Source: a virus. From it: DNA of 64,000 nt. Made by a program: the position numbers and the translations under genes. Shown here one piece after another: positions 4,269-28,447 of the stretch. Every line of letters starts with the position of its first letter. Positions within the stretch are counted from its first letter, which is position 1. A model generated the notes under the pieces. The model worked only from the letters and a program-made list of their open reading frames with translations, was not told the DNA's origin and did no database searches. The stretch is from positions 1 through 64,000 of the IMG/VR virus record IMGVR_UViG_3300028384_001275; one strand, 5' to 3'.

Positions 4269-5204
4269 ATGTCCTTTTCTAGTCTCAAGAAAAAGTCTGG
4301 GTCCTTTGCTAATTTGACTCAGCAGATTGAGAAGATGTCTAAACCCAAGGGTGCAGGTCCCGATGAGCGCCTGTGGAAACCTGGTGTAGACAAGTCTGGT
4401 AATGGTTATGCGGTGATTCGATTCTTGCCTGAGCCCGATGGAGAGGACCTGCCCTGGGCACAAGTCTGGTCCCATGCCTTCAAAGGACCTCAAGGTCAAT
4501 GGTATATTGAAAACTCTCTCACGACTTTGAATCAAAAGGATCCTGTGGGTGAGCTCAACCGCACTCTTTGGAATAGTGGTATTGAATCCGACAAAGAGAT
4601 TGCTCGTAAGCAGAAGCGCAAGCTGTCTTACTACAGCAACATCTATGTTGTGAAGGATCAGCTGAATCCCGAGAATGAGGGTAAAGTTTTCCTCTATAAG
4701 TATGGTAAGAAGATCCACGATAAGATCGTGTCTTCTATGCAACCTCAGTTTGAGGATGAAGAGCCTATCAATCCTTTCGATCTGTGGAAAGGTGCTGACT
4801 TCCGTATCAAGATCCAGACCATTGGTGGTTATTGGAATTACGATAAGTCCGACTTTGCACAACCCGCCACTCTGGGTGGTTTTGAAGACGAGCGACTGGA
4901 AGAGATCTGGAAGTCCCAGTATTCTCTGAAGGAATTCACTGCTCCTTCCGCCTTCAAGTCTTATGAAGAGTTGGAAGCACGTCTTAACATGGTGCTGGGC
5001 ACCTCCTCTACGCCTTCAGTGCGTCGTAGTGATGAGAGTTTTGATGCTGAAGATGGTTTCAACTCACCTGACATTATGACACCTTCACCAGTGGTCCAAG
5101 CAGACCCCACTCCGAGTGGTTTTGGTGATAAGATTGAAGAGTTGAGCAAGTCGGACGATGGTCCTGACCTTGATTACTTTGCTTCTCTCGCTAACGACGA
5201 CTGA
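4269..5204 (+). CDS. gp32: Single-stranded DNA-binding protein gp32
   Basis: DERLWKP..DKSGNGYAVIRFLP, WYIENS.TT, KRKLSYYSNI, NYDKS.F, acidic tail DLDYFASLA. Confidence 0.95.
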   Translation: MSFSSLKKKSGSFANLTQQIEKMSKPKGAGPDERLWKPGVDKSGNGYAVIRFLPEPDGEDLPWAQVWSHAFKGPQGQWYIENSLTTLNQKDPVGELNRTLWNSGIESDKEIARKQKRKLSYYSNIYVVKDQLNPENEGKVFLYKYGKKIHDKIVSSMQPQFEDEEPINPFDLWKGADFRIKIQTIGGYWNYDKSDFAQPATLGGFEDERLEEIWKSQYSLKEFTAPSAFKSYEELEARLNMVLGTSSTPSVRRSDESFDAEDGFNSPDIMTPSPVVQADPTPSGFGDKIEELSKSDDGPDLDYFASLANDD

Positions 5205-5479
5205 TGAAACTGTTTGCCCTCCCTCTGCTGCTACTGACTGCGGCACCTGCCAATGCACTTACCTGGAAAGAATTCTGGGAGCCGTTTGATGGAGGGCATC
5301 ATCACCATCACTATTATCGAGACCATTACTATTACCCAAGACCAATGTGCGAAGTCTATGTAACTAAAAGACATTGGGTGCCAGGGTATTGGTTGGGTCC
5401 CAACAGATACGTTGAAGGATACTGGGAGAGTAGAGGACACACCAAGCTTCGTCCCTGCAAAAGGAGAAATCGAGTCTAA
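5204..5479 (+). CDS. Secreted/membrane-targeted His/Tyr-rich small protein
   Basis: Signal-peptide-like N-terminus (..AAPANA), His run, WVPGYW/YVEGYW repeats. Confidence 0.65.
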   Translation: MKLFALPLLLLTAAPANALTWKEFWEPFDGGHHHHHYYRDHYYYPRPMCEVYVTKRHWVPGYWLGPNRYVEGYWESRGHTKLRPCKRRNRV

Positions 5480-5502
5480 ACCAAAATCGACTTTTAATTC
5501 AC

Positions 5503-5535
5503 AAATACCCCGAAAAAAAATTCGGGGTATTTTTT
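5503..5535. terminator. Bidirectional intrinsic terminator
   Basis: AAATACCCCGAA / TTCGGGGTATTT inverted repeat plus T-run, between convergent genes. Confidence 0.8.
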
Positions 5536-5553
5536 GGTCTGTAGGGTTTTTAA

Positions 5554-6513
5554 TTAATATCCACTGCCACCAGACGATCCACTAGATCCCGAAGATCCGC
5601 TAGATTCACTCGAGCTGCTCGATCCACCTAAATTGTCATCAACGGTAGAACTACCAAATTGGTTAGTCGTAGAAGATGCCGTAGATCCTGTTGTTGTCCT
5701 AACTGTAGTAGATCCATCAGCAAGTGTCTGACCTTCAGTAATGCGACCAGTGGATCCAGAGCGAGTGAAGGTTTTCACACCATAATCCACATTGGATGCA
5801 AACGAGATTGTAGGTATCTGACCAATATTTGTCGAATACATCTCTTTTGTGCTGATAAACGACTCTTCGATAGCATCGAAAGTTTGCTTCATTCCCGACT
5901 CATTATCCAATTCAGCAGAATCGAGATATTCGACCAATTCTTCAAATTCATTAACAAAGTCTTGCAAATACTCATTTCTCAAAATGTAGATATTGCGTTT
6001 GTAGTCGTTAAGAGCAGATTCATGCTCGTAATTAGTAATTGGCACTATCAGGTCATCTGTGGGGACTACAGTGCCATCTGGGCGAGTATATGAGAAGTCC
6101 TGAGGAATGATTTTGCCTTCTTTAAGCAAAACTCTACCGTTAATGTCTTTTACCTCTAAAGATTCATAATGGTGAATTTTCTCAACCTCAGATGTGCCAT
6201 ATTTACGAGCACAGAATTTGTATAACTCATGCTCATCCATAGGCCACTCTTCGTAGACATTAATGACATTATTGACTAAGAGCACTACCCAGTCAAACGC
6301 AGAGTCGCCATATTCAGTAAAAGCAACTTGCTCAGGTCTTTCATTGTTTTTTACTGTATACTGGGAAAATCCCAAAATCATGTCATCAACCTGATCGCGA
6401 ATCTTAATTCGACGGAAGAGGTTTTTAGCTGCTACAAAAGGATCGATACTATCCGTCCGATAGCTAGATGTCCTAACTTTAACATTGGGCAGATAAGAAA
6501 AATAACTTGACAT
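5554..6513 (-). CDS. gp53: Baseplate wedge protein gp53
   Basis: MSSYFSYLPN, KNLFRR, ERPEQVA..YG....WVVLLVN, WP, IHHYE; Ser/Gly-rich tail. Confidence 0.85.
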   Translation of the reverse strand: MSSYFSYLPNVKVRTSSYRTDSIDPFVAAKNLFRRIKIRDQVDDMILGFSQYTVKNNERPEQVAFTEYGDSAFDWVVLLVNNVINVYEEWPMDEHELYKFCARKYGTSEVEKIHHYESLEVKDINGRVLLKEGKIIPQDFSYTRPDGTVVPTDDLIVPITNYEHESALNDYKRNIYILRNEYLQDFVNEFEELVEYLDSAELDNESGMKQTFDAIEESFISTKEMYSTNIGQIPTISFASNVDYGVKTFTRSGSTGRITEGQTLADGSTTVRTTTGSTASSTTNQFGSSTVDDNLGGSSSSSESSGSSGSSGSSGGSGY

Positions 6514-7455
6514 TTAGCCTCTCCCCTTATAACTTTCTTTGGTCAGGTAAGATGTTTCTTGGAATGAAAGTGAAATATTGTATGAAACAGGACCATAATC
6601 AAAATCTCTAGAAACAAAATTCTGGGTCTGAAGAGATGCATAGTTTCCATCGGGAGAATAATCAACTCCCATATTGGTAAGGACCATTTTAGATGGAAAA
6701 GACATCAATTTTTGAATAACGCCAGGCGCTTCACCAGTGCCAGGATTCTTGACTTTATCTTGTGTGGGAGATGAGACGTGTCTGATAATACTCATTCTGA
6801 AATAGTCAGGAATGGTCAACCAAGACTTACCATCCTTACCAGGAAGCATTGCAATTCTTAATTTGTCAATGATTTTGACAATAGTTTCAACGTCAGTAGT
6901 ATTTTTGGGCACCATCTTAAAATTGAAACTGTGGTTTCTAAAACCTGTACCCTGAAAGATTGCTTCTTCATATGGATTGAAGACTTTACCTGTCGTTAGA
7001 GCAGAAAGACTGTTTCTATCTAATCCTGGATTTGCACCAGTCAGACCAACTGCTTTATTAATGACATCAGCACCAATTTTATATCCAATAGAAGGTTTTG
7101 CTGCTTGTGCTGCAGCTGCAACTTGATTGCCGATAGAGTCTGGCAACCCACCAGCAGCAATAGCATCACCTGCTATCCCAACCGCAGCAGCACCAACCTC
7201 TCCCAATTCAACACCGTTGTATTTTGCAGAATATTGCTCGGAGAGTTTGTTTGGGAGGTAGAGATAAATAGGTTCACCGAGCTGTGCTTCTTCTGCTTGA
7301 ATAGCGTTGAAACCACCCTTGGTGTCTCCTTTGAAAATATCCAGTTTAAGATAATCGATAACCTCATTAGAGAATCTATTCTCTTTTCGGATTGCCGATG
7401 CGCTGGTATCACTATTAGGACCCGCTGGTTTATATCTTGGAAACACTAATGCCAT
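6514..7455 (-). CDS. gp48: Baseplate tail-tube cap gp48
   Basis: IYLYLP, FNP.EE.IFQG..FR.HSF.FKM.PK, LT...VDY.PDG, LSFQE; synteny with gp53/gp4. Confidence 0.8.
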   Translation of the reverse strand: MALVFPRYKPAGPNSDTSASAIRKENRFSNEVIDYLKLDIFKGDTKGGFNAIQAEEAQLGEPIYLYLPNKLSEQYSAKYNGVELGEVGAAAVGIAGDAIAAGGLPDSIGNQVAAAAQAAKPSIGYKIGADVINKAVGLTGANPGLDRNSLSALTTGKVFNPYEEAIFQGTGFRNHSFNFKMVPKNTTDVETIVKIIDKLRIAMLPGKDGKSWLTIPDYFRMSIIRHVSSPTQDKVKNPGTGEAPGVIQKLMSFPSKMVLTNMGVDYSPDGNYASLQTQNFVSRDFDYGPVSYNISLSFQETSYLTKESYKGRG

Positions 7456-7888
7456 GAGTTATTCTGGAAAATATCGCCCGTCAAATAGACATAAGTATAA
7501 GGGTGATCCTACAAATATTATTTATAGGTCTTTGTGGGAAAAGAAGTTTATGGTATGGTGTGATAAAAATGAGAATGTAGTGGAGTGGGGCAGTGAAGAG
7601 ATTGTCATCCCGTATATTAGTCCTGTCGATAATAGGATTCATCGCTATTTTCCAGACTTCTACGTCAGAGCACGGACCAGGAGTGGAAGGACTCAGAAGT
7701 TCATTATTGAGGTTAAACCGAAGTCGCAATGTGCTCCACCGAAGAAACAGAGAAAGCTTACCAAACGGTATTTGAGTGAAGTCAAGACCTATGCCGTCAA
7801 TGATGCGAAGTGGAAGGCAGCAAGGGAGTATTGTAAAGACCGCAAGATGGAATTCATGATACTTACTGAAAAAGAATTGAAGGTATGA
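7454..7888 (+). CDS. gp4: Head completion nuclease gp4
   Basis: KYKGDPTNIIYRSLWE, W.SEEIVIPY.SP.D...HRYFPDF, IEVKP, N.AKWKAA. Confidence 0.9.
   Translation: MSYSGKYRPSNRHKYKGDPTNIIYRSLWEKKFMVWCDKNENVVEWGSEEIVIPYISPVDNRIHRYFPDFYVRARTRSGRTQKFIIEVKPKSQCAPPKKQRKLTKRYLSEVKTYAVNDAKWKAAREYCKDRKMEFMILTEKELKV
7519..7526 (-). promoter_or_regulatory. T4-type late promoter TATAAATA for gp48-gp53, inside gp4
   Basis: Perfect TATAAATA on the - strand about 65 nt before the gp48 start. Confidence 0.6.
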
Positions 7889-8355
7889 GCATCTTTACTG
7901 ACGTTAAAGATCTGGCAGAGGGTCAGAAAAAGTCAAAGGACTGGTATCGCGATCAGTTATTTTATGGTCTTGAATCTTATACGGGATCATTTGAGCCTGG
8001 TGATATTATTATTTTCAGATATGCAGCTGCCACTGAAAAACTCCAGTTTTGGGATACTTGCCCAATGGTGTTAATCACAGATTTAGATGTTAAGAATCAG
8101 CAATTTTCAGGACACAATGCACATTATCTGAGACCCAGCACTAGAAGAGGTATATGTAATACCTGGGCAGCAGGTAGTAAGGCAGCACCTGGGCGTTGTT
8201 ATCATAAATACTTCATGTCTAATGCTAGTAGCATCTATAAGGTGCCGAATGCAGAACTTAAAAATATGACACCTCTCCCTGTTGAGCAATTTGTATTGAG
8301 GACTATAGGGAGGACTATGGAAGTGCCAAGCAGCTTTATCTGGGGTAGACTTTAA
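7885..8355 (+). CDS. gp2: DNA end protector gp2-like protein
   Basis: F.Y.A.....WD..P.V, F.G.N.HYL, .HKY, LPVEQF; follows gp4. Confidence 0.65.
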   Translation: MSIFTDVKDLAEGQKKSKDWYRDQLFYGLESYTGSFEPGDIIIFRYAAATEKLQFWDTCPMVLITDLDVKNQQFSGHNAHYLRPSTRRGICNTWAAGSKAAPGRCYHKYFMSNASSIYKVPNAELKNMTPLPVEQFVLRTIGRTMEVPSSFIWGRL

Positions 8356-9089
8356 TGTCAGCTAATTCATTTTCAGTATTCAGAGATTTGGCAACATCTG
8401 GCAGGATGGAGCCATCAAGATCCAATCTCTATTCAGTAGAGATTCAAGTTCCTGCTGTCTTGGCATTGGACAGTAGTCTTAGTAATACTTCTGGTAGAGC
8501 AGATTACTATCAGGCTATAAACTATTTTGCTGATAATGTGACTGCTCCTGGAAGAAGGATCACCACAGGGCAGGTGAGAGATGTTGGTGCAATGCGTCGT
8601 TTTGCTACAGATACTACATTTTCTGAGATAACGTGCTCATTCATTGTTACCAAGAATATGTTTCATAGACATTGGTTTGAAAAATGGATGAATTATACAG
8701 CATCTGACTCTGAGAATCGAGCATCCTTCTATGATGAATATACTGCCGACATTTATATCAATAAATGGGAAGTGGGGTCTAATGTAGTTTTTGAAGGTAG
8801 GACTGATGATGGGGAGAGATATACGCAGAGGATGAATAGATCCACAGCAACATGGGTGATGTATAATGCATTCCCATATGATATGTCAGAATTGACCTTC
8901 AATAATGGTGCTGCTGATCTTTTGAAATTAGATATTTCATTTTACTATGAAAGGTATCGTTTTGATACTATTGCCATGGATAAACTTAAGTTTGGTGGCA
9001 AAGACAAGTACATCAATAGTTTCCAAGATATTGCTGCAAAACTAGGTTATAGTCAACAGCAAGCAGATGTTACCCGATTTGGTGTCTAA
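8355..9089 (+). CDS. Tail-tube-like protein (gp19/gp54 family)
   Basis: R.NLY.V, V..PG, F..W, AFP...S...N, L.I.F.Y fold motifs; synteny before gp26. Confidence 0.65.
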   Translation: MSANSFSVFRDLATSGRMEPSRSNLYSVEIQVPAVLALDSSLSNTSGRADYYQAINYFADNVTAPGRRITTGQVRDVGAMRRFATDTTFSEITCSFIVTKNMFHRHWFEKWMNYTASDSENRASFYDEYTADIYINKWEVGSNVVFEGRTDDGERYTQRMNRSTATWVMYNAFPYDMSELTFNNGAADLLKLDISFYYERYRFDTIAMDKLKFGGKDKYINSFQDIAAKLGYSQQQADVTRFGV

Positions 9090-9092
9090 ATA
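9087..9092 (+). promoter_or_regulatory. Late promoter core TAAATA
   Basis: TAAATA 22 nt upstream of the gp26 ATG. Confidence 0.6.
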
Positions 9093-9114
9093 ATTTCAAT
9101 AATAATGGAGCATT

Positions 9115-9819
9115 ATGCCTTTACCACAACTCGCCATTCCCGAGTATGAGCTGACCCTGCCTCTTTCTGGCACTAAAGTTTCATATCGTCCTTTCCTCGT
9201 GAAAGAAGAGAAACTTTTGTATCTGGCAATGGAATCTCAAGACCAGAAAGAGATGATCAAGGCGGTGAAAACTATCATTAAAAACTGCACCAACCTGAAG
9301 GCTAAGGTTGAAGATCTCGCTACCTTTGAGATTGAATACATCTTCCTTCGTATCAGATCTAAGGCAGTTGGTGAAGTTAGTGAGTTTAAGATCGCTGCAC
9401 CAGACGATGAGGAAGTTAAAATTCCAGTCACCGTCCCCCTGGAGCAGGTGGGTGTAGTCATCCCTGACGGACACGACAAGAAAATCCAGCTTGACGATGA
9501 AGTTGGCATTGTAATGAAATATCCTTCATTGAATGTCTTTGTTAATCAAAATATGTCTGATGGACCAGATCTGGATGATATTTTTGAATTGGCAGCATCT
9601 TGCATTGAGCAAGTTTATACAAAAGATGAAGTATATGATACTTTCTCTCATGCAGAAGCAATGGAATTCCTTGAGAATTTGAATTCTGATCAATTCCAAC
9701 AGGTGCAGAAATTCTTCGAGACTATGCCTAAACTCTCTTACACTCTTGAGGTGTTTAATCCAAAGTCGAAGAAGAAGAGTGAAGTTGTCCTTGAGGGTCT
9801 TGCATCTTTTTTCGAGTAG
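9115..9819 (+). CDS. gp26: Baseplate hub assembly protein gp26
   Basis: MPLP....P.YEL.LP, YRPFLVKEEK.L..A.ES, EYIFL.IRSK.VGE, MKYPS, FFETMPKL, EGLASFF. Confidence 0.9.
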   Translation: MPLPQLAIPEYELTLPLSGTKVSYRPFLVKEEKLLYLAMESQDQKEMIKAVKTIIKNCTNLKAKVEDLATFEIEYIFLRIRSKAVGEVSEFKIAAPDDEEVKIPVTVPLEQVGVVIPDGHDKKIQLDDEVGIVMKYPSLNVFVNQNMSDGPDLDDIFELAASCIEQVYTKDEVYDTFSHAEAMEFLENLNSDQFQQVQKFFETMPKLSYTLEVFNPKSKKKSEVVLEGLASFFE

Positions 9820-9824
9820 CCCTA

Positions 9825-10010
9825 ATGCATAACACCTTGGAAAATTACTACAAGGTGAATTTCGCGTTAGTGCAGCATCACAAGTATTCTCTTACTGAGT
9901 TAGAAAATATGATGCCGTGGGAGAGGGATGTATATGTGAATCTCCTTTTAGCACACATTGCTGAAGAGGAAAGACGGCAAAACCAAGAACAAAACCGCAT
10001 GTCTCTCTAA
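9825..10010 (+). CDS. gp51: Baseplate hub assembly catalyst gp51
   Basis: LENYYK.NFAL.QHHKYSLTELENMMPWER..Y; may also be reached by -1 frameshift from gp26 (see findings). Confidence 0.85.
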   Translation: MHNTLENYYKVNFALVQHHKYSLTELENMMPWERDVYVNLLLAHIAEEERRQNQEQNRMSL

Positions 10011-13000
10011 TGGCAGTTATTAGAAGTTTTATAAAAATTGCCCCAACATCTACCAAGTCGGAGATCGGACTTAACTTTAACCAGTTAAGGAAAGCGATCA
10101 ACCGACAGGGGATGGTGGTCAATGACATCGGCAAAAATCTTGTAGAATCTTCCACATTACTTGAGTTTCAGCAAGATTATCTCAAGAATCAATCTGTAGT
10201 TATTATTAGAGAAGAGGAAGAGAAGGTCGTAAAAGAAAAGACTTTCATGCAGAAGATGCGTGATAAGTTTCGTCGTAAAACAAAGAAAAAACAGCGAGAT
10301 GCTGCAGAAGATGCTGCTGAAGAAGGGCTGAAAGAGGCAGAGAAGAAAGATAATAATAAATTAGTAGAGGGAATTAAGAAACCAATCAAAGGTTTCTTGG
10401 CTACAGTTTTAAGCACGCTTGGCACAATAATTGAATACTTTGTCGTATTTGGTGCCTTAGATTGGATAAGTAAGAATCCCGAAAAGGTAGAAAAACTTAT
10501 TAGACTTGTATTTGCTATTGGTAAGTTTGCAGCCACAATAGTTGGATTTGGTGTCAACCTTATCCTAGATGGACTTACTAATACCTTTGGTAATTATGAG
10601 GAAGAAGGACCCCTTAGAAGAGGTCTTCGCGGTGTTTTAGGTGTAATTCAACTATTCAGTGGATTAGCAGCGTTACGAGGTGCTCAGTATCTCCTCATGC
10701 CTTGGAAAATCCTGCAGGATGGTAATCGTATTAAAGATGCTTTGCAGCAGCAAAATCTAACCAAGCAGGAGATGGAGAAGGCGAATCAAGCTCGCATTAA
10801 AGGATATAAGGATAAAAAGACTGGTGCTGTCTACTCAAAGGAAGAGTATGACAGGATGAGGAAAGCTGCCCAACGTAAAGATAAAAAGGGTGGTAAGGGA
10901 TCTAATGTAAAAGCATTTGAAGAGCGTTTCGGCAGGCAATATAAAACCAGACAAAAGGGTCCTGTTTCTAAGATGAAACAGCGGGGACGCATTGGTCTCA
11001 AAAAATTAGGAAAAGGATTCAAGAAGGTTGCCACACCTGGAAGAGTTGCTGGTGGTTTATCTGTCCTTGGTGGTGGACTTCGTATCGCTTCTGGAATTGC
11101 TGCTGGTGAAAGTGCAGGCACTGCGGTTGGTGCTGGTGTCGGTCAGGCAGTTGGTGGTATCGCTGGCGCTGCTGCTCTGACGGCAGTTGCACCATTCCTC
11201 GGACCCTTTGCACCTATGATCGGTAGTGCAATCGGTGGATTCTTAGGTGAGTTTATTGGTAAGCAGATTGGACCGATTATTGAGCCTATCTTTGGACCTA
11301 TTGGAAGATTCTTCCAAATGTCGTTTGATGTATTTAAGGATGTTTTCGCAGAGATTGCTGGTCCCTTCCAAGAATTATTTGAAGCAGCTTTCTCGTTAGC
11401 ATCAAAAGTTGGTAGTTTCTTCATGGACAGTGCTAAGGTCCTCTTGGACTTTGGTAAATTTGTCTTTGGTCCAATCTTCAATAAAATCGGTGCTGTCATT
11501 GGATTTATCATTGACAAGGCAAAAGTTTTGATGGATCCTCTAGGTGCTGCTGCTAAAGCAACTGGTGACTTATTTGGCGGTGCGGCAAAGGCAACTGGTA
11601 ATGCTTTAGCAGGCACTGTAGATTTTCTAACTTTTGGTATAACAGACTTAGATGGTAAGAGTCGCCCTGCTGGTGGTGGTAATGGAGCGTCTGGTGGATC
11701 ACCCACCATGAGTGGTAACTTTGATGAGAAGTTTGCAGCAGTCCTGGGTGACTATGAAGGTCTGAGACTAAAAGCATATCCTGATGCCAACTATGGGTGG
11801 GAGATTCCCACTATTGGTATTGGTGCAACATACTATCCTGCTGGTTTCCGTCTCTCGGGCAAGGTAAAGAAAGGTGACACGATCACCAAGGAAGAAGCAT
11901 ATTGGATCAAGTCAAAACATATTGAAGAGCACCGTAAGCGCCTTGTTAATGAGATAGGTGCTGAGCTTTATGGCAAGACAACTGAAAGGCAAAAGGTAGG
12001 ACTTGAGTCCGTAGTTTTCAACTATGGATCTCTGTCTGGTGCTGGCATTAAGGAAACAGTTAAGAATGCAATTCAGTCGGGTAACTTTGCTCCTGTAATC
12101 TCAGCGTATAGAAACAAACTTGCAAAGCACAATGGTGGTGTCAATAGCTGGCGTCGTAATGACGAAGCAGATATTATGGAGAAGGGGAGTGGCACAAGGG
12201 TCCCTGGTATTCAGTTTGCTTCTGCTGGTGGCAAGATCATCCAAGATGTGCCCTATATCAACCAGAGAGCAAACAAGGCAGACAAGTATGGTCGCCCTGG
12301 TGATACTCAGTGCTACTCAACTACGATGGCAATGTGGGCGTCCCAACTTACTGGCAAACCCATGACTGCTGAGGATTATAATCAGGTCCGTAGTAAGTAT
12401 GGCATCTCTACACAAGCATATCCTCAGAAGAAAGCACTTGCTGACTTTGGTATTAACTCATCCCTGCAGACTGGAATGGGTTGGAATGCACTCCGTGATG
12501 AGATTAAAGCAGGATATCCTGTGCCCGTTGGATTCAAATATAAGGGATCGGGTCACTGGGGTATGGTTGTTGGTATGAAGGATGATGGATTCGTAGTCCA
12601 TGATCCATTCGGACAACTTGGCATGGGTGGCACCTGGAAGAAGACTAACAGTGCTGGTAATAAGACAGATGGTCCTGGTAAGTATTACTTCATGGACAAG
12701 AATCTCTTCCAGAATCAGTTGCCTGACGGTGATGTCTACATGTGGAAAGCACCTAGATCTATCAAACCATCTAAGAAACTTGGTGATGTAACGACACAAG
12801 GTGAGGGATCATCCCCACAGCCTGGATCAACTGCTGGTCCTGGAAGCGAAGCTGGACTGAGAGATTCTGCTACTGGTGAATTATTCAAAACTGATACTAT
12901 TGAGGGCGCATTGGCAGCAATGACGCAACTTCTTACTACGGGTATCGGTAAATTATCTGAAGGTATGGCAAATGAAATACCTTCAGAATCACCACAACCA

Positions 13001-15957: not shown

Positions 15958-15958
15958 G

Positions 15959-17345: not shown

Positions 17346-17369
17346 ATATTATACCTCTAGGAGGGAAAT

Positions 17370-17582: not shown

Positions 17583-17607
17583 CAATTAATTGAATAATTA
17601 TTATAAT
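17579..17607 (+). promoter_or_regulatory. Consensus sigma70 promoter for cpeT
   Basis: TTGACA (17579-17584), 17 nt, TATAAT (17602-17607). Confidence 0.85.
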
Positions 17608-17626
17608 CAACCATGTAGGGGTTGCA

Positions 17627-18088
17627 ATGGAACTCTTTGAAGAACTACTGATTGGTGAATACACAAATAAGAAACAGGCTCAGAGTAATCCTTCTATGTG
17701 GCCTCAGATAAATGTAGAGATCATAAAAAAAGGATTACATACAGTAGAATTTAAGTCTTGGTATAAGTATCAAGGAAAGACAAATGCGTATAGACATTAT
17801 CGTTGGGTCTATACTGTATTGACAGATAATATTGTGACGGTGGAATCGGAGAATTTAATCGACGGTAAACCAACATGTCCTTATATTTTCAAGTATCATA
17901 ATGAAGACGGTTGGTGGCGGGGCACGACTAATGGAGTGTGTCAATTTGGGAATACAAGAGTAATCTCAAGGACAAGATTCAATGGAAAGGAATATAGATC
18001 GATTGATAGTGGTTATCACGCAGAGACTAAAGACTTATTGTGGGGTAAATCGCAGAGAGAAGGAGAGTTTATCTTTTTAGCTAAATAA
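17627..18088 (+). CDS. cpeT: CpeT/CpcT-type bilin lyase
   Basis: G.Y.N..QAQSNP..WP, KSWY.Y....AYR, D.G......WG...G.F.F. Confidence 0.8.
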   Translation: MELFEELLIGEYTNKKQAQSNPSMWPQINVEIIKKGLHTVEFKSWYKYQGKTNAYRHYRWVYTVLTDNIVTVESENLIDGKPTCPYIFKYHNEDGWWRGTTNGVCQFGNTRVISRTRFNGKEYRSIDSGYHAETKDLLWGKSQREGEFIFLAK

Positions 18089-18108
18089 TTTCACGAAAAA
18101 ACAACGCA

Positions 18109-20820: not shown

Positions 20821-20828
20821 GGTATGAT
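20800..20828 (+). promoter_or_regulatory. Sigma70-type promoter
   Basis: TTGCCA, 17 nt, TATGAT; followed by GGGAGTC/GACTCCC hairpin (20831-20851) directly before the ATG at 20852. Confidence 0.6.
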
Positions 20829-20851
20829 ATGGGAGTCCAAGACAGACTCCC

Positions 20852-21049
20852 ATGATTCCTGACCAAGATTCAGTCCTAGAGCACATCTGGGTCACTATCT
20901 CCGATCGCACCATCAAAATCCTTGATTCTGAAGGATATGACGAGGTGATCAGGTATAAATTTGATATGGAGGGTGCCGAAGGTTTTACTGAAACTATTGC
21001 AGCCTTCAAAGAAAATGTCCCTGAAGATATGGTTACTTACGTCTCATGA
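20852..21049 (+). CDS. Hypothetical protein
   Basis: ORF after promoter, coupled to next gene. Confidence 0.6.
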   Translation: MIPDQDSVLEHIWVTISDRTIKILDSEGYDEVIRYKFDMEGAEGFTETIAAFKENVPEDMVTYVS

Positions 21050-21297
21050 ATTTGATCTCACTATCACAAGATGAGTTTCAGGAAAACTCATCGTTTGTCT
21101 TTTCTCTCCTTGAAAAAGGACATACGGTAAAGATTGTTACGAGTGGTGGCATGACAGTGCTTATGACACCCATGCAACAACTACAAACCCAACAACCTCA
21201 GATAAATATTCCTAACCCAGAAGAGTTTCAACCCGATCCAGTTGCGGTAAGGGAATATGTAAACGAATCTCTGGAGGAAATGACTGAGAATTTCTAA
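21046..21297 (+). CDS. Hypothetical protein
   Basis: ATGA overlap with the previous ORF. Confidence 0.6.
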   Translation: MNLISLSQDEFQENSSFVFSLLEKGHTVKIVTSGGMTVLMTPMQQLQTQQPQINIPNPEEFQPDPVAVREYVNESLEEMTENF

Positions 21298-21298
21298 C

Positions 21299-21583
21299 AT
21301 GAAGAAGATCCGCATTGAATACAGTTATTCTTATCTCGATCTAGATGATAAGAATTCAATGATTGTGCAAATGTGGACTATTCAGGGGTTACCATTCACT
21401 TTTGAGGAATTGCCTGAAGTGATGCAATCAATGGAAGAAGTCAAGCTTGACGCAGAGACAGGCAGACGTTATACTATGGAAGAGCTCCACAGGGTTAGTG
21501 ATTATCTAATTGCTGAAGAGTGTCATCCAGTGTTGTTTGACTTGTCATGGATGGTTGAAAACTATGAAGAAGTGCCTGACTAA
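21299..21583 (+). CDS. Hypothetical protein
   Basis: Acidic ORF with PFTFEE and YL..EECHP..F; tightly packed. Confidence 0.65.
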   Translation: MKKIRIEYSYSYLDLDDKNSMIVQMWTIQGLPFTFEELPEVMQSMEEVKLDAETGRRYTMEELHRVSDYLIAEECHPVLFDLSWMVENYEEVPD

Positions 21584-22191
21584 TGTTTGAGATTGGTAAT
21601 TGGGAAGTTAGTGAGTATGACATCGAAGGTAGCAAGATCTTTGTCATCGATAACTTCTATGCTAATCCTAATGAGGTCTACTCTTTATGTCTAAACCCAC
21701 TTCCAGATTACTGGAAGAAGTCAGATGTCTTGGGTTGGAATTCGGTTAAATACGAAGACCGACGTAAAATTGAATACTATGAAGATCTAGGGATAGTTTA
21801 TGATAAACTATCAAACTTATGTAATCAACCACCCGAAAAACCAAACGTATTCACAACCAACGTAACTAAGTTTATTTGTCCCCAATACAACGACTTTAGT
21901 AAAAAATATTGGTGGCCACATAGAGACATTGGTTACAATGGTATTGTATACTTTGATAACTCTGGCACGAATCTATATGCCAAAGATTCACTTAACCCCT
22001 TATTGCCAGAGTGGGTTTGTCCATGGGTCTCAAAAAGTGAGTGGAATGTTATCCACACTACAGATGCAAGACCAAATAGATGTATACTGTTTGACGGAGC
22101 AATGTTTCCACATGGAATGAATGTTTCAAACCGTAACTACTTTGACAAGTATCGGGTCAATCAAGTATACTTCTTCAAGACGCCACTCTAG
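21583..22191 (+). CDS. 2OG-Fe(II) oxygenase-like protein (DUF6445-like)
   Basis: IDNFY.NP start, PHRD (HxD), GT.LY, NR...FDG...HG, R..QV.F. Confidence 0.65.
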   Translation: MFEIGNWEVSEYDIEGSKIFVIDNFYANPNEVYSLCLNPLPDYWKKSDVLGWNSVKYEDRRKIEYYEDLGIVYDKLSNLCNQPPEKPNVFTTNVTKFICPQYNDFSKKYWWPHRDIGYNGIVYFDNSGTNLYAKDSLNPLLPEWVCPWVSKSEWNVIHTTDARPNRCILFDGAMFPHGMNVSNRNYFDKYRVNQVYFFKTPL

Positions 22192-22255
22192 CTCAGCTGG
22201 ATAGAGCAACGGTTTTGTAAACCGTAGGTCGTCGGTTCAAGTCCGACGAGTGGCT
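22182..22255 (+). tRNA. tRNA-Thr(TGT)
   Basis: GCCACTC/GAGTGGC acceptor; ACGGT-TTTGTAA-ACCGT anticodon arm; GTTCAAGTC T-loop; no encoded CCA. Confidence 0.92.
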
Positions 22256-22258
22256 CTC

Positions 22259-22331
22259 GGGGAATTAGCTCAGTTGGTAGAGCGCCTGCTTTGCAAGCAG
22301 GATGTCAGCGGTTCGAGTCCGCTATTCTCCA
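22259..22331 (+). tRNA. tRNA-Ala(TGC)
   Basis: GGGGAAT/ATTCTCC acceptor with G3:U70; CCTGC-TTTGCAA-GCAGG anticodon arm; GTTCGAGTC. Confidence 0.93.
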
Positions 22332-22386
22332 TTCACACAAATGCTACGGCAACGTGTGATACCAATGCATTATGCTAGTTTTTATT

Positions 22387-23343
22387 ATGCCAATTTATCG
22401 CGAAATACTAAAATCCTCTCCTACTCCTGAGTGGTTTGAGTCACTCCCTCTCCCCGAGGGTGAGACATGGGTGTGTGTGGGTCGTCAAGAGATCGAGCTT
22501 GACAAACTTACATTGACTAATGATAAAGGTCAAATCACTAACATTGCCCGTGCTAAAGGCACTGACAAAGAGCATTCACAAGAGATTGCTGGTGCTATTA
22601 AAAATAGAGGTGTGTTGCTTGATGCCCAACCCCCTTATGTCACCACCAGTAATCGTCTTATCGATGGTTACACTCGAACTGAGGCAATCAGATCCCTTGG
22701 TTTTGAATCTTGGGTTTACAACGTAGTTGAGCCTAAAGAAGGATTCACTGAGCAAGATGTTTGGGATGACATCGGACTTGGTGCCAATGATCATCCCCCT
22801 GCTAAACGAGCAACTCGATCGGACTTTACTATCCGTCTGAAAGCTCACCTTCAAACCTTGGACCCCTCTAAGATTACTGAAGGTTACTGTCTCGATTGGA
22901 TTGAGCGTATTCCACACTCTTTCTCTAAAGCAGTTGTTAACAGCATTGCTAGCAAGTGCGTAAAATCAGTACGTGCAGCTGCGACCATGGAGTCACTGAC
23001 TGGTAAGGATGTTGCCAAAATCTACAAAAACCAGATTGAAGGTGTGATCGTCCCGATCAACATCTCAGGTAACATTGATTACTTCCGTCGTGCTGCGATG
23101 GAGTCGATGAGGCAAATTTCTATAGGTAAAGATCCTGTGGGAATTACTTATGTGAATGATACGGAAGCAGATGAGTTGGAGTCTGTCCGCAACAGTGCGA
23201 ATTCGCAAGTTGACCGTATTAATGCTGAGTTTGAAGCATTGTTTCAACGTCGGTTGAAGGAAGGTGAGAATTTCAAAGTAGTGCGTCTTAATTACCATGC
23301 ACCTCAAGTGTTGGGAGCTGAGACAAGTCTGATCGAAGCATAA
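22387..23343 (+). CDS. Hypothetical protein with a ParB/Srx-like N-terminal motif
   Basis: I...G.....PP......LIDGYTR..A resembles the ParB-N DG.HR motif; alternative ATG at 22372. Confidence 0.55.
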   Translation: MPIYREILKSSPTPEWFESLPLPEGETWVCVGRQEIELDKLTLTNDKGQITNIARAKGTDKEHSQEIAGAIKNRGVLLDAQPPYVTTSNRLIDGYTRTEAIRSLGFESWVYNVVEPKEGFTEQDVWDDIGLGANDHPPAKRATRSDFTIRLKAHLQTLDPSKITEGYCLDWIERIPHSFSKAVVNSIASKCVKSVRAAATMESLTGKDVAKIYKNQIEGVIVPINISGNIDYFRRAAMESMRQISIGKDPVGITYVNDTEADELESVRNSANSQVDRINAEFEALFQRRLKEGENFKVVRLNYHAPQVLGAETSLIEA

Positions 23344-23371
23344 TATATACTGGGACCTTGAGGTCCCACAT

Positions 23372-23443
23372 TCCTCTGTAGCTCAGCGGTAGAGCCATCG
23401 ACTGTTAATCGATTGGTCCCAGGTTCGAATCCTGGCGGGGGAG
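23372..23443 (+). tRNA. tRNA-Asn(GTT)
   Basis: TCCTCTG/CGGGGGA acceptor; ATCGA-CTGTTAA-TCGAT anticodon arm; GTTCGAATC; preceded by TGGGACC-TTGA-GGTCCCA hairpin. Confidence 0.92.
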
Positions 23444-23458
23444 TTAGTCAATTACTTT

Positions 23459-24106
23459 ATGACTATGAAAATTTTTCTGGACACTGCCGACTACAACGCC
23501 ATTGCTGAAAGGTATCCCACTGGATTAGTGGATGGTGTCACAACTAACCCAACACTGGTGCGTAAAGCTGGTGTAAATTATCTTGACTTCATTAAAACAC
23601 TAGCAAATGATTTTGCTTTTGAAAGTATCTCTGCTGAAGTGGATGGTGAGACTCATGATGTGATGCTTGAGAATGCTAATCAGTTTCTTAACATTGATCC
23701 TTCAATCACTATCAAACTACCTCTAACTAAAGAAGGTCTCATCGCCTGTCGTGATCTTTCCGAGAGTGGTATCAAGACTAATGTCACTCTATGTTTCAGT
23801 GCTGCTCAGGCAATTATGGCGGCAAAGGCAGGTGCTACATACATTTCGCCCTTCGTTGGTAGAATGAATGACAATTCTCTCAGTGGTGTCGAGCTTGTCC
23901 GTAGTATTGCTGGACTTTATGCACAACATAGAGTAGAGACTCAGGTCCTTGCAGCATCACTTCGTGACTGTCATCATGTATCACGTTGTTTCCTTTATGG
24001 TGCAGATGTTTGCACTTTGCCTACTAAAGTCTTCGATAAGATGTATAATCATGTCTTGACTGATGCTGGTCTTGCTATCTTCGCTGAGGACTTCAAAGCC
24101 CTGTGA
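23459..24106 (+). CDS. talC: Transaldolase TalC
   Basis: KIFLDTA, GVTTNPTL, IKLP, TNVTLCFS..QA..AAKAGATYISPFVGR, LAAS.R. Confidence 0.95.
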   Translation: MTMKIFLDTADYNAIAERYPTGLVDGVTTNPTLVRKAGVNYLDFIKTLANDFAFESISAEVDGETHDVMLENANQFLNIDPSITIKLPLTKEGLIACRDLSESGIKTNVTLCFSAAQAIMAAKAGATYISPFVGRMNDNSLSGVELVRSIAGLYAQHRVETQVLAASLRDCHHVSRCFLYGADVCTLPTKVFDKMYNHVLTDAGLAIFAEDFKAL

Positions 24107-24564
24107 TGTTTCAATATCTTAAAAACTATTCTGATGTATCACAATTTAAGTGGGATAGTGTTATTGAGAAACTTGATACTGATATTCGCTTAAAGCAGTG
24201 GGGATACGCAGGAGAATATAAAGAAGGATCTCTACCAACTCTTATTGCTGAGAGTTGGTGGACTCCCGATAAGTGGGTAGAGTTGCAAGATAAGGTATAT
24301 GATGATTTTGGTATGAATGCTATGCACTCATACATTTCTTTTACGGCAAGCACTACCACTTTGGGTAGACATTGTGATGGTATGAATGTTTTAATCGTGC
24401 AAGCGATTGGACTTACATCATATATGTTTGATGATGGTAGTTTTATTACACTTCGCCCTGGAGATGCTATCTACATACCAAAAGGGGTGTATCATAATCC
24501 ACATCCACATGGACCAAGAGTGTCTCTTAGTTTTTCGGAGGTGAATAATGAAGGGGATGTATAG
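24103..24564 (+). CDS. Cupin/JmjC-like oxygenase
   Basis: RHCD (HxD), L.PGD.IYIPKG.YH, R.SLSF. Confidence 0.7.
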   Translation: MMFQYLKNYSDVSQFKWDSVIEKLDTDIRLKQWGYAGEYKEGSLPTLIAESWWTPDKWVELQDKVYDDFGMNAMHSYISFTASTTTLGRHCDGMNVLIVQAIGLTSYMFDDGSFITLRPGDAIYIPKGVYHNPHPHGPRVSLSFSEVNNEGDV

Positions 24565-24868
24565 TAGAATATACACCAGTTATGATTTAGGACCAGGGTT
24601 TTGGAATCGTGAATGTCATTTTCAAGATTCTAGTTGTGGTGAATATTGGTTAGATCCATCTGGTAAACTATGGACTATTGATTATACTGGATGTGCAGTC
24701 TTTGGTGATAATGGTAATATTCAAAAGAGTGGATGCAATGGTAAAATATATGTTTCGGGATTGACTCGCGAGATCATTATCATGCCAGCTGAATGGACTG
24801 TTAAATATGCACCATACCCACAAAAGAAAGTATTATTCATCAATGGCATCCTAGAAGGTTATAAATAA
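24548..24868 (+). CDS. Hypothetical protein
   Basis: GAGG RBS; YWLDPSG.LW.IDY motif. Confidence 0.6.
   Translation: MKGMYSRIYTSYDLGPGFWNRECHFQDSSCGEYWLDPSGKLWTIDYTGCAVFGDNGNIQKSGCNGKIYVSGLTREIIIMPAEWTVKYAPYPQKKVLFINGILEGYK
24860..24867 (+). promoter_or_regulatory. T4-type late promoter TATAAATA
   Basis: Perfect consensus upstream of the virion gene block. Confidence 0.75.
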
Positions 24869-24895
24869 AACTGTAGCAAATCGTGTTGAGATTTC

Positions 24896-26236
24896 GTGGC
24901 AACTAAAAGAATTTCCCAGTTAGATACGATCGCAGACGCATTGGTCACTGGTGAAGCAGTCCTGCCTATCGTTATCTCTGACCCTCTGATTCCTAACCGT
25001 AAGGCAAAAGTAAATCAACTTTTCCGTGGTTTGACAGCAGGCAGTCAGACTGCGCCAGGACTAGCTTTTGACCTAGACCGTGACACTGGACTATATCAAA
25101 GTGCAGTAAATGAGATCGGCATTACATTTGGTAGTGCAGCATTTTATAATACTAGAAGATCAAATACTGATGGATCTTCCACTCTGGTGGTTAGAGCAAT
25201 CGATAGTGCATCTTCTACATCTAGTATGGAATTTACTCCTCAGGGTAGTGGATTTTTTACAGTTAATGGTCCTATTATCCAAACGGATGCACAGTTTTTC
25301 CTGCAAGGTGATCAGAATACTGGTAAACGAGCACAGTTTAACGTAGATACAATCTCAGCACAGTCTGGCACTCGTCGTTTTGATATGCCTAATGTGGGCA
25401 CATCGACCAGCACAACACTGCTGGCAACTGACACTTTCCAGACAATTACAAACAAGACAATCATTATTAAGGACGCAGAGCTTTCTATTACTGGATCGAC
25501 TGCTACTGATAAGATTGCTAAATTTGAGTGTGATGCTTGGGAATCTCCTGGACTTCACACTTATAAGTTGCCAGACTTTGGTGCTGCACAAACTCAGTCA
25601 ACACTCCTTGATGATATTACATCACAGAATATCTTTAATAAGAATTTGGTTAACCCCAAATTCTCCAACACGCCTTCTGATGATGAAAATAATCCCACTC
25701 GTTATGTCATCTTCAATCAGCAGGAGCTGACACAAGATCGCACCGTTACTTTCCCCGACCTCAACATCAAGGTGGTTGGTGAAGCATCGGCACAAACTGT
25801 CAGTAATAAAGTTTATCAGGGTGCAGTATTCTGTGATACTGATCCCGCTGATGGTCTTGGAAGAAAGATTTCTTTTGACCTTTCTAATATTGAGGATAAC
25901 CAAAACTATGTGTTTGGTTTCCCTGATAATGATCCTACTGCTCCCCTGAATACTACAGGGACAAACATCCTCGTCTCAGAGAATAAAACACAGACTCTGA
26001 AGAATAAGACGATGGAATTGATGAAGATAAATAACCCAGATGATTTGAATGGTATCATTACTATTGATGCATCAAACATCACTGGATCTGTCAACATCCG
26101 ATTCCCAGACGCCGATGCAACGTTGCTATCTACTAATAACATTAGTGATGTAGCAATTACATTTGGTGGTGCTCTATCTGCCCCTGTTTTGGGTGGACGT
26201 ATTCGACTTCAACAACATTTCCTTACAGGTTGGTAA
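24896..26236 (+). CDS. Virion structural protein (tail-fibre associated)
   Basis: MAT.RISQL start, PGL.F..D.DTGLY, repeated Q.(L/I).NK / R....FPD units; late promoter. Confidence 0.7.
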   Translation: MATKRISQLDTIADALVTGEAVLPIVISDPLIPNRKAKVNQLFRGLTAGSQTAPGLAFDLDRDTGLYQSAVNEIGITFGSAAFYNTRRSNTDGSSTLVVRAIDSASSTSSMEFTPQGSGFFTVNGPIIQTDAQFFLQGDQNTGKRAQFNVDTISAQSGTRRFDMPNVGTSTSTTLLATDTFQTITNKTIIIKDAELSITGSTATDKIAKFECDAWESPGLHTYKLPDFGAAQTQSTLLDDITSQNIFNKNLVNPKFSNTPSDDENNPTRYVIFNQQELTQDRTVTFPDLNIKVVGEASAQTVSNKVYQGAVFCDTDPADGLGRKISFDLSNIEDNQNYVFGFPDNDPTAPLNTTGTNILVSENKTQTLKNKTMELMKINNPDDLNGIITIDASNITGSVNIRFPDADATLLSTNNISDVAITFGGALSAPVLGGRIRLQQHFLTGW

Positions 26237-26242
26237 ACACAC

Positions 26243-28447
26243 ATGACAGCAGGAAGACTTGCAGCTGCTAAACCAGCAGCAACTACTAATACAGTTATCT
26301 ATAGATGCCCTCCCACTTTAACTGGTAGCACAGTCGTGAATGTGTGCAACCAAAGTGGTAGTGCTGCTACTTATCGTTTGGGTCTGCGTGACTATGACCA
26401 AGTATTGCACTTAGATGGTCAAGAAGCAGAAAACGGTGGCACAGCATCCACATATAAATTTGAAAGGGGAAATCCCGTTAGCGCATATAAATTATCTCTC
26501 ACTCCTGGATTTCAATATTCAGATGCAATTCCTGGCACTGAGTTCTTGTCAACTAATGGTGCAACTGGAAAGATCCTTGACATTTTCAAGGCAACTTCAG
26601 ATGTTACTTACTACACCATTGTTGATTCGGTAACCAATGTTTCTCTACAAGCAGATTCTACTGCGGGCACATTTGAGGGTGGTGAAACTCTAACAGGATC
26701 AATTTCTGGACTAACTGCAACATATCGTGGTGGTGATGCTACGGCATTAACCCTGGCTTTGGATGATGTTGCATCTGGTGCTACTTCAGTTAAAATTTCT
26801 CGCACAACAGGTCTTGCAGATGGTCAAGTCTTGACTATCGGTGGTGTTTCTGATGGTGGTGAAATTGTTTCGATTGATGCATCAGGTATTAACACAACCA
26901 CCAACACGCTGACTATTACTCGAGCTGCTCTCGGCACCACCGCTGCTGCTATTCCTGTTGGTTTGGCAGTCACTGCCTGGTCTGAATCTGCGGTTACGTC
27001 AACAATTGATGAGGGTGCAACTTATGCAACCTCTGATACAACTTTGACTGTGGCAGATTCCACGGGTTTTGTTACTGGTAGTATTATTAAAATCGATAAT
27101 GAATTGCTGGCGATCACGGATGTTAATGGTAACGACATTACTGTTGATAGAGGAGTCTATGGCACTTCTGATGTCGATCACAACAATGGATCCACCGTCA
27201 CGCAAATGACAGATAATGGCACTTATCTGATTAATCACTTCTCAGAGGGCGAAACTTTGACTGGTGGTAGCTCTAATGCAACTGCAATTCTAGATTTTGA
27301 TGCTGCTACTTCAGCAACAAATTCTACAAAGTATCTGTTTACTACTACCTCAGATTCTGCTACTGATCATGTCCAATTTACTGCTATTGATTTCAATCTA
27401 GATCGGACATATATCTTTGATCTGAGTGATTCAACTTGCAATAATTATCCTTTGAAGATCTCTGCTGATGATCCTGAAGGTCCTAATGGTAGTGGCACAG
27501 AATATACTCAAGGTGTATCTAAGGTTGGCACAGCTGGCACAACGGGAGCATTTACTTCTATTGTAATTACAACTAATACTACTCCCAACCTTTTCTTGTA
27601 TGCAGATGGCACTCCTTCTGGAGAAACGCAAGGTATTGGTTTAGGTGCTACAGTGCAAACTAATCCCACTTATGAAGAAGTGTTTATCTATGATGTTGGT
27701 GGTGAAGCACTTGTAGATGCAGATACGTTTACTATTAATGGTGTAACACAAACTATCAATGCTAGTGGTGTTACTGCTGGTCCTTTTGGAATTGTCACTA
27801 ATTGGGATCCTGATAAGGCACACCTCAAGATTGCACTATCTCCTGGATCTGAGGCATTTGCAAATGGTGATGAATTTTATGATACTCCCACACTGAATAA
27901 TGGTAATCGTACTATTGTTAGGGTTGTCGATGGTAAAATTCTAACAGTCACCAACATTGCTGCTGCAAACGCATCACGCTCCGAAGGCACATATTCTAAT
28001 CTGACTGCCAATTCAACTAGCGGAAGTGGTGATATTACGACAGCACGTTTTACTGTGGATGTTGATAACTCTGGAGCAGCAACTATTACCATTGTAAATG
28101 GTGGTAAAGATTTCGTATTGAATGAAACCGTTACTATTAACGATTCTCAACTTGGTGCTGGTGGTGCTCCTGCTTTGACATTCGATGTTGCAACTTTCTC
28201 CACTGGAGTTACTGCTGATCAGACAGACATTTATAACGCTGAAGATTATCTTTTCTATGATAATGCTATCGGAGCAAATGAGACTGAAAAGAATAGTGCA
28301 ATCGTTGTAGGTCCTGGGCAAAGCCTGGTTGCTTATTCCTCAGCAGGTGATCTTAGCTATGTTGTTAATGGATTTGAGTCTGTATCGGACGATCTCCCTG
28401 TTGTCAATATGACTAAGGTCAATACAGATGGTGGCGTTGCTCCATAA
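26243..28447 (+). CDS. Virion structural protein
   Basis: Thr/Gly/Ser-rich beta repeats (GETLTG..S..TA; ID.E...IT; RG..GT...H). Confidence 0.7.
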   Translation: MTAGRLAAAKPAATTNTVIYRCPPTLTGSTVVNVCNQSGSAATYRLGLRDYDQVLHLDGQEAENGGTASTYKFERGNPVSAYKLSLTPGFQYSDAIPGTEFLSTNGATGKILDIFKATSDVTYYTIVDSVTNVSLQADSTAGTFEGGETLTGSISGLTATYRGGDATALTLALDDVASGATSVKISRTTGLADGQVLTIGGVSDGGEIVSIDASGINTTTNTLTITRAALGTTAAAIPVGLAVTAWSESAVTSTIDEGATYATSDTTLTVADSTGFVTGSIIKIDNELLAITDVNGNDITVDRGVYGTSDVDHNNGSTVTQMTDNGTYLINHFSEGETLTGGSSNATAILDFDAATSATNSTKYLFTTTSDSATDHVQFTAIDFNLDRTYIFDLSDSTCNNYPLKISADDPEGPNGSGTEYTQGVSKVGTAGTTGAFTSIVITTNTTPNLFLYADGTPSGETQGIGLGATVQTNPTYEEVFIYDVGGEALVDADTFTINGVTQTINASGVTAGPFGIVTNWDPDKAHLKIALSPGSEAFANGDEFYDTPTLNNGNRTIVRVVDGKILTVTNIAAANASRSEGTYSNLTANSTSGSGDITTARFTVDVDNSGAATITIVNGGKDFVLNETVTINDSQLGAGGAPALTFDVATFSTGVTADQTDIYNAEDYLFYDNAIGANETEKNSAIVVGPGQSLVAYSSAGDLSYVVNGFESVSDDLPVVNMTKVNTDGGVAP

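Follow-up and report, generated by a model that had tools for sequence, protein, structure and literature searches.

This study deals with the avoidance of short DNA words in a stretch of 64,000 nucleotides (the window) from the IMG/VR virus record IMGVR_UViG_3300028384_001275, and with a two-gene cassette at positions 44225-45607, which encodes a candidate restriction-type nuclease, here called P0001, followed by a DNA methyltransferase (methylase) gene. The source record is a fragment of a T4-like marine cyanomyovirus with a length of 104,523 bp, estimated by CheckV to be 58% complete, and the window comprises its first 64 kb. About 90% of the GAAC/GTTC and GTAC sites have been removed from it through synonymous codon choice. 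These words can be read as one asymmetric word, GWAC/GTWC (hereafter GWAC), and in related phages their depletion goes along with the presence of the cassette. The explanation we favour, with a probability of about 60%, is that the GWAC purge reflects self-avoidance of this phage-borne pair, which resembles a type II restriction-modification (R-M) system. The coordinates of the features are given in Table 1.

The size of the purge was determined in three ways. In the window, the observed counts and those expected from base composition are 20 and 245 for GAAC, 21 and 222 for GTTC, 24 and 233 for GTAC, 10 and 113 for GGCC, and 0 and 113 for CCGG. For the whole record, observed-to-expected ratios (O/E) were calculated with a maximal-order Markov model, in which the expectation is derived from the 3-mers. 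They amount to 0.08 for GAAC and GTTC together (58/721), 0.15 for GTAC (43/287), 0.00 for CCGG (0/92), 0.19 for GGCC (17/91) and 0.32 for AGCC and GGCT together (111/347); the lowest 4-mer after these five words is found at 0.65, and GATC at 0.93. Finally, a codon null was generated by permuting the synonymous codons inside each of the 94 called open reading frames (ORFs), 88 of which lie on the + strand, in 200 shuffles that keep the proteins and the per-gene codon usage. Compared with this null, GAAC occurs 29 times instead of 318 (z -21), GTTC 24 instead of 378 (z -23), GTAC 42 instead of 330 (z -22), GGCC 17 instead of 111 (z -11.5) and CCGG not at all instead of 131 times (z -14), counts that none of the 200 shuffles ever approached, while GATC is commoner than the null (612 vs 455, z +11). 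The 101 residual GWAC sites of the record are evenly spread, with 0-10 in each stretch of 5 kb, and 95 lie in coding sequence.

The original prediction, made by reading the window alone, had claimed a strong, window-wide avoidance of GAAC, GTTC, GTAC and GGCC from hand counts in two samples and had named codon-preserving shuffling as a check. The avoidance is confirmed and is stronger than had been stated, with ratios far from 1 under the shuffles as well. Our recounts agree with the samples, namely the complete lack of GAAC, GTTC and GTAC in the gp32 gene (4269-5204), and a single GTTC (26542), a single GTAC (27909) and no GAAC in 26281-28440. The absence of CCGG and the partial depletion of AGCC/GGCT go beyond that prediction.

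For the comparison with relatives, 60 kb were sampled from each of 20 cyanomyovirus isolates, which together with this record gives 21 genomes. A megablast of 26243-28447 against phage records gave no match, and the relatives were reached via protein search. In the seven genomes that carry the cassette (six isolates and this record), GAAC/GTTC shows an O/E of 0.08-0.25, compared with 0.85-1.15 in the 14 genomes that do not, and the two ranges do not overlap. For GTAC, the values are 0.15-0.32 with the cassette and 0.00 (S-SM1) to 0.93 without it. When all k-mers were compared between the pooled cassette and cassette-free genomes, GAAC/GTTC (ratio 0.12) and GTAC (0.32) were the sole 4-mers that differed, the next one having a ratio of 0.79; no flanking base was required, and GATC was slightly enriched. 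Since only these 4-mers differ, the contrast supports a single word GWAC/GTWC, as had been suspected from the sequence of the window. The bases flanking the word in all the cassette phages, and those around the residual GWAC sites of this record, were analysed for signs of a longer recognition motif and followed no rule.

The connection extends to metagenomic relatives, which are referred to here by our locus labels (L numbers). P0001 homologues were found on 55 IMG/VR contigs, and most of those with an adjacent methylase have a GAAC O/E of approximately 0-0.25. In three cases, a purged gp32 locus and a P0001 locus lie on one contig (L006/L337, L014/L318 and L071/L331). Five long gp32 contigs that were searched for P0001 stop short of where the gene would be expected. 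The balance of the purge between GAAC, GTAC and GATC shifts with the P0001 subfamily, the methylase being 75-96% identical throughout: in the L304/L305 subfamilies, GAAC is purged much more than GTAC, and in L308 and L343 GATC is purged too.

P0001 has no Pfam family and matches phrog_11812, a group of unknown function; its profile gave no meaningful match to any solved structure among the PDB sequences. An alignment of 35 homologues shows no variation at D76, E93 and K95 or in an ATGNNHSK block. An AlphaFold2 model, calculated from the homologue alignment, reached a predicted local distance difference test score (pLDDT) of 88.5 and a predicted template modelling score (pTM) of 0.86, and in this model D76 and E93-x-K95 lie on consecutive beta strands, which is the classical PD-(D/E)XK layout. 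In a structural search (VIA) with this model, the first nine matches were all type II restriction endonucleases (REases), with NaeI at the top (Z 9.3, 151 residues, root-mean-square deviation 3.7), followed by DpnI, BglI, 3ndh, SfiI, SwaI, NhoI, NlaIV and EcoRV; Foldseek returned the same REase families, weakly. The predicted fold thus resembles the NaeI/EcoRV branch of the REases (PDB 1ev7, 1iaw, 1eo3, 5tgq, 1dmu, 2ezv; Z 9.3 to 5.0 over 140-180 residues), including the position of D...ExK on consecutive strands. However, the sequence identity is only 5-10%, P0001 has 200 residues compared with 295-304 in NaeI, and the second DNA-binding domain of NaeI is missing. Fold, motif and missing word together suggest that P0001 is a nuclease with specificity for GWAC; we know of no characterised enzyme that recognises this word.

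With regard to distribution, tblastn detected P0001 homologues in 17 of 50,697 phage records (S-H35, S-RIM4, S-MS29, Syn9, Syn10, P-TIM40 and S-MbCM6/25), and in every annotated phage record a DNA methyltransferase adjoins the homologue; in Syn9, the nuclease homologue is gp61 and the methylase gp62. The homologues number 112, all unnamed and mostly on phage-sized contigs. A scan of 185,579 prokaryote species genomes with a pattern of the family yielded two records, both apparently mis-binned cyanophage contigs, and missed a gammaproteobacterial copy (L264). Contigs that appear to be mis-binned T4-like cyanophages are L258/L260 (NZ_RMVE01000006.1, "Nonlabens xiamenensis"), L257/L259 ("Euryarchaeota TMED129") and L261 ("Flavobacteriales TMED113"); one of them is 188 kb long, and they contain the cassette, no CCGG, and 0-5 GAAC where 30-45 are expected. 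L264 itself (OZ244916.1, chromosome of a Gammaproteobacteria metagenome-assembled genome, 1320399-1327151) encodes the same pair of nuclease and then methylase, 36% and 63% identical, respectively, with local counts of 4/27 for GATC, 0/34 for GGCC and an only mildly low 41/63 for GAAC. More distant homologues of P0001 (approximately 41-47% identical; L252-L256, L335, L336, L338 and L344) occur on contigs with a partial purge leaning to GTAC (GTAC 0.2-0.4, GAAC 0.55-0.7), where no adjacent methylase was detected; these contigs contain CCGG and therefore probably belong to a different phage group.

The methylase gene is located directly downstream of the nuclease gene in this record and in the six isolates, and also in those IMG/VR loci of the cyanomyovirus type that were examined and on the bacterial chromosome L264. 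In this record, the end of the nuclease gene overlaps the start of the methylase gene (ATGCTTGA). In L264 and the copies of the cyanomyovirus type, the nuclease lies directly upstream of a methylase with the motif TSPPYDD, often overlapping it, and an overlapping TSPPYDD methylase also follows the nuclease in L312/L313 and L311/L339; the core TSPPY is present in every methylase orthologue. In beta-class enzymes, in which motif IV is N-terminal to the S-adenosylmethionine (SAM) motif I, SPP[YF] is the signature of N4-cytosine methylases, as opposed to [DN]PP[YF] in N6-adenine enzymes. Among solved structures, the DNA cytosine-N4 methyltransferase 8s9m is the best sequence match (E 8e-15), and the N6-adenine enzyme M.MboIIA scores almost as well. 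We infer from motif order and signature a beta-class methylase of the N4-cytosine type, with N4-methylcytosine (m4C) as the putative protective mark. Such an enzyme would suit the word, because GWAC and GTWC both end in C and GTTC contains no adenine.

In this record, the methylase gene is interrupted. Compared with five intact orthologues, 49 nt are deleted directly after the SPPY codons, by which the conserved DDLRTYNDSSKWDFNV segment is lost, the frame is shifted and the gene is split into ORFs of 34 and 228 aa; this segment is conserved also in divergent and bacterial copies of the methylase. The C-terminal fragment, the one PF01555 methylase of the window (E 1e-34, from profile position 34), is 81-88% identical to the intact orthologues of 263-281 aa. 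Exact searches of viral and metagenome contigs for the deletion junction and for a lineage-specific 24-mer found neither. An error of the assembly and a defective variant are both possible explanations, and it is also conceivable that the two fragments still function jointly.

Table 1. Features of the window and their positions (1 = first nucleotide of the window).
Feature	Position	Strand	Remarks
P0001, 200-aa candidate restriction-type nuclease, predicted PD-(D/E)XK fold	44225..44827	+	D76...E93-x-K95; presence tracks the GWAC purge
Sigma-70-like promoter match, TTGCCA, 18-nt spacer, TATAAT (11/12)	44172..44201	+	consensus match only; 24 nt upstream of the nuclease ATG
Methylase, N-terminal fragment, 34 aa	44820..44924	+	terminates in motif IV (SPPY, catalytic); its start codon overlaps the stop of the nuclease gene, and its stop codon the ATG that follows
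Junction of the 49-nt deletion	44917..44918	+	from DNA alignment with the intact orthologues of S-H35, S-RIM4, Syn9, S-MS29 and P-TIM40
Methylase, C-terminal fragment, 228 aa, beta-class N6_N4	44921..45607	+	SAM-binding half, lacking motif IV; PF01555
Synonymous purge of GWAC, GGCC and CCGG, genome-wide	1..64000		persists through the other 40 kb of the record
Ten GGCC sites of the window	6242..58773		eight forced Trp-Pro, two avoidable
gp32 single-stranded DNA-binding protein gene	4269..5204	+	0 GWAC sites, 7 GATC; first sample of the original prediction
734-aa ORF, no Pfam match	26243..28447	+	2 GWAC sites (26542, 27909); second sample of the original prediction

According to the explanation favoured here, the nuclease and methylase pair would be expressed early in infection. 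The nuclease would cut unmethylated GWAC in the DNA of the host, which is rich in such sites, or of rival phages, and the methylase would mark the terminal C of GWAC/GTWC in the phage DNA on both strands. Replicating phage DNA would never be fully methylated, and selection would therefore also remove approximately 90% of the sites by synonymous substitution. If the 49-nt deletion is real, this phage would have to rely on the scarcity of sites or on some limit on the action of the nuclease. The direction of causality, from cassette to purge, is our reading of the association. A further-reaching version is tentative and in our view rather doubtful, namely that P0001 represents an uncharacterised, nearly phage-restricted family of miniature type II REases with GWAC specificity, which together with the m4C methylase serves as a weapon against host or rival DNA, and that in the present lineage, after loss of the methylase, the scarcity of sites alone ensures survival.

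Several observations weigh against self-avoidance. This record keeps 101 GWAC sites that follow no flank rule, although the nuclease is intact and the methylase looks dead. A nuclease cutting every GWAC would be lethal under these circumstances, which means either that the model is incomplete in at least one of its links or that the deletion is an artefact of the assembly. It is possible that the nuclease is limited in time or needs more than one site, as NaeI does, or that the model itself is incomplete. In addition, conservation is much stronger in the methylase than in the nuclease, and selection for the function of the methylase would be consistent with this as well. Not all cassette contigs are strongly purged: GAAC is at approximately 0.5 in L340-342, at 0.46 in L311/L339 and at approximately 0.6-0.9 in L306/L307. 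In the gp32 tree, the cassette phages fall into two clades only, one with this phage and P-TIM40 and the other with Syn9, S-RIM4 and S-MbCM6, so that the split of seven against 14 genomes rests on few independent contrasts; the second clade is separated by very short branches from the unpurged phages among which it stands. Finally, low GTAC values occur in some phages that lack the cassette (S-SM1 0.00, P-HM1 0.22), and GTAC must therefore have additional drivers. In S-SM1 (L204-L206), 60 kb contain no GTAC at all, GAAC/GTTC is normal and there is no P0001 cassette, hence a separate pressure specific to GTAC must exist.

The original prediction had attributed the avoidance to selection by a host system, and this idea deserves the most attention among the alternatives, even though we regard it as unlikely. 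A host system cutting GWAC would cause exposed lineages to lose their sites and to gain a protective methylase, with P0001 as an accessory or hitch-hiker. Classical site avoidance is indeed driven by type II enzymes of the host (Rusinov et al., 2018; PMC6286503), and phage methylases are usually taken as counter-defence (PMC12801897). The conservation of the methylase at 81-88%, while P0001 drifts to 37%, points in the same direction, and an incomplete purge with about one site per kb fits methylase-backed evasion. However, phages isolated on the same strain are purged or not according to the cassette. On Prochlorococcus NATL2A, the GAAC O/E is 0.08 for P-TIM40 and 1.11 and 0.94 for P-SSM4 and P-RSM6. 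WH7803 is a host shared with the unpurged S-PM2, Syn30 and S-IOM18; the comparison for this strain is made via S-MbCM25, which has the cassette, and its near-twin S-MbCM6, which is purged. Furthermore, T7-like cyanopodoviruses share these host genera, and in 80 of their loci the O/E is 0.97 for GAAC and 0.94 for GTAC. The different fates of same-strain phages and the unpurged podoviruses argue against a host enzyme as the driver and do not support this part of the original prediction. The DNA of the hosts, sampled as 29 Prochlorococcus and 10 Synechococcus/Cyanobium loci, is not purged of the word and shows a GAAC O/E of 0.93-1.08. The searches detected neither nuclease nor methylase relatives in cyanobacteria, where a non-homologous host enzyme could still exist, and no cyanobacterium occurs among 42 close cellular relatives of the methylase. 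Moreover, P0001 keeps its nuclease motif and the predicted REase fold, the two genes are direct neighbours in the copies of the cyanomyovirus type, and every isolate with the methylase also has the nuclease.

The more specific suggestion that the system might be phosphorothioate-based, i.e. a Dnd or Ssp system of the host acting on GAAC/GTTC and GGCC, is very improbable. GAAC/GTTC and GGCC are on record as Dnd motifs (e.g. PMC6435447 and PMC9521924), and these words (GpsAAC/GpsTTC, GpsGCC) overlap with those avoided here. In a search for DndC (TIGR03183), the gene was found in none of the four named host genomes and in none of a sample of 201 genomes of their family; the sensitivity of this search is not demonstrated, as all 14 controls also remained below the cut-off, and it did not include the Ssp genes. 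In contrast to Dnd systems, GTAC belongs to the same signal here and co-varies with GAAC, and the driver appears to be phage-borne, the purge following the phage cassette and not the host. GGCC, in turn, is depleted regardless of the depletion of GAAC. To our knowledge, GTAC is not a Dnd motif, and neither is CCGG, the most depleted word. It had also been supposed that GATC is tolerated thanks to a phage Dam methylase. The 104 kb of the record (58% of the genome) yielded no D12, phage-type Dam or C5 methylase, and since GATC is near expectation in cassette-free relatives too, a special protection of it is not needed. The weakest alternative, that the pattern arises from codon usage, dinucleotide bias or mutation pressure and not from selection on the words, is refuted by the Markov ratios (0.08-0.19 for the purged words, at least 0.65 for every word outside the five named above), the codon-preserving shuffles (z -12 to -23) and the isolate comparison, in which near gp32 relatives of equal GC content (41% in this record) have a GAAC ratio of approximately 1.0, even if words with CpG tend to be low in this genome.

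The avoidance of GGCC and CCGG is not explained by the cassette. As originally counted, the window contains ten GGCC, eight of which coincide with forced TGG-CCN codons at Trp-Pro junctions (6242, 17545, 17700, 21914, 41895, 46121, 55225 and 58770); the avoidable ones lie at 28970 (Ser-Ala) and 32850 (Met-Ala). In the whole record, TGG-CCN accounts for 13 of 17 GGCC, and the Trp-Pro dipeptide is not depleted, with 13 observed and about 15 expected. GGCC has therefore been purged nearly to the synonymous limit, and no further. CCGG is absent in this record and in the 60-kb samples of all 20 cyanomyovirus isolates, and both words are purged in every cyanomyovirus sampled, irrespective of the cassette. 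The gp32 loci of 80 IMG/VR relatives form a mosaic: nearly all lack CCGG and have a low GGCC, the purge of GAAC/GTTC and GTAC is confined to certain clades, with normal values in others, and yet other clades have purged RGCY, GCGC or GATC instead. The GGCC/CCGG purges are thus independent of the cassette and must have a different cause from the GWAC purge. The avoidance of GGCC, which had been grouped with the GWAC words, is real but constitutes a separate, family-wide trait. In the cyanopodovirus loci, CCGG is at 0.95 and GGCC alone is reduced (0.54), and in the host loci GGCC is at 1.06-1.09 and CCGG at 0.76-0.90. As CCGG is normal in podoviruses and hosts, the cause points to something intrinsic to myoviruses, while a host factor is possible for GGCC, which is half depleted in podoviruses too.

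Further words are avoided in individual lineages. GCGC is zero in all five phages isolated on Prochlorococcus (P-SSM2, P-SSM4, P-HM1, P-TIM40 and P-RSM6) and in no Synechococcus phage, which means that it tracks the host, and CGCG is zero or nearly so in P-SSM2, P-SSM4 and P-RSM6. RGCY (AGCC/GGCT, AGCT) is down to 0.0-0.1 in S-WAM1, L056, L059, L060, L061 and L066, with milder values in this record (AGCC 0.32, AGCT 0.74). GATC has nearly disappeared from L026, L030, L036 and L037 (0-3 sites in 9-21 kb) and is at 0.34 in S-IOM18; its tolerance is therefore lineage-specific. As to the remaining gene content, genes for gp5-lysozyme, gp6 and a tryptophan halogenase were found in the window, and gp32 shares 67% identity with that of P-TIM40 and S-WAM1. 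Just upstream of the cassette, at 36974-43841, several consecutive 2-oxoglutarate (2OG)-Fe(II) oxygenase genes come after the tryptophan halogenase gene (PF04820, E 2e-112).

Among known systems, the closest precedent for self-avoidance is the avoidance of an R-M recognition site in the genome carrying the system, as described by Rusinov et al. (2015; PMC4687349), and site avoidance also occurs in virulent phages (Rusinov et al., 2018; PMC6286503). As in those cases, a short word lies far below composition through synonymous change and is tied to an orthodox nuclease and methylase pair. The differences are that the present carrier is not a bacterium but a lytic phage of the T4 type, that its word is an asymmetric, degenerate 4-mer and not a palindrome, and that the depletion is about tenfold. 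Cyanophages are covered by neither the 2015 nor the 2018 survey, and no description of the GWAC purge in cyanophages or of the cassette was found in the literature searched, which was covered in part and included PMC12801897 and PMC6286503. The two components of an orthodox type II R-M system, a separate nuclease of the PD-(D/E)XK type, as judged by fold and motif, and an adjacent methylase gene, are both present here. Chloroviruses encode R-M pairs such as CviQI for GTAC and CviJI for RGCY, which are thought to degrade the host DNA and to spare the viral DNA. The two cases have in common that a lytic virus infecting a phototroph has a site-specific nuclease and a methylase of its own, predicted ones in the present case. 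However, chloroviruses methylate heavily and keep their sites, whereas here the sites are largely deleted and the methylase is broken in this record; and P0001 has neither a Pfam family nor a sequence match to a solved structure.

Cyanomyoviruses kill a large share of the picocyanobacteria in the ocean and degrade the DNA of their hosts, and they do not have the hydroxymethylcytosine by which T4 distinguishes itself from its host. If the explanation proposed here is true, a phage-borne REase, combined with a phage genome cleared of its target, would offer a simple means of discriminating between self and host, and the pair could also serve in the competition between phages. The idea can be tested directly, as Syn9 and P-TIM40 are cultured isolates with an intact pair, and a GWAC-specific enzyme would then add a new specificity to the restriction-enzyme toolbox. 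The avoidance of a word by a phage is not automatically the fingerprint of a host defence, which calls for caution when such words are used for host prediction.

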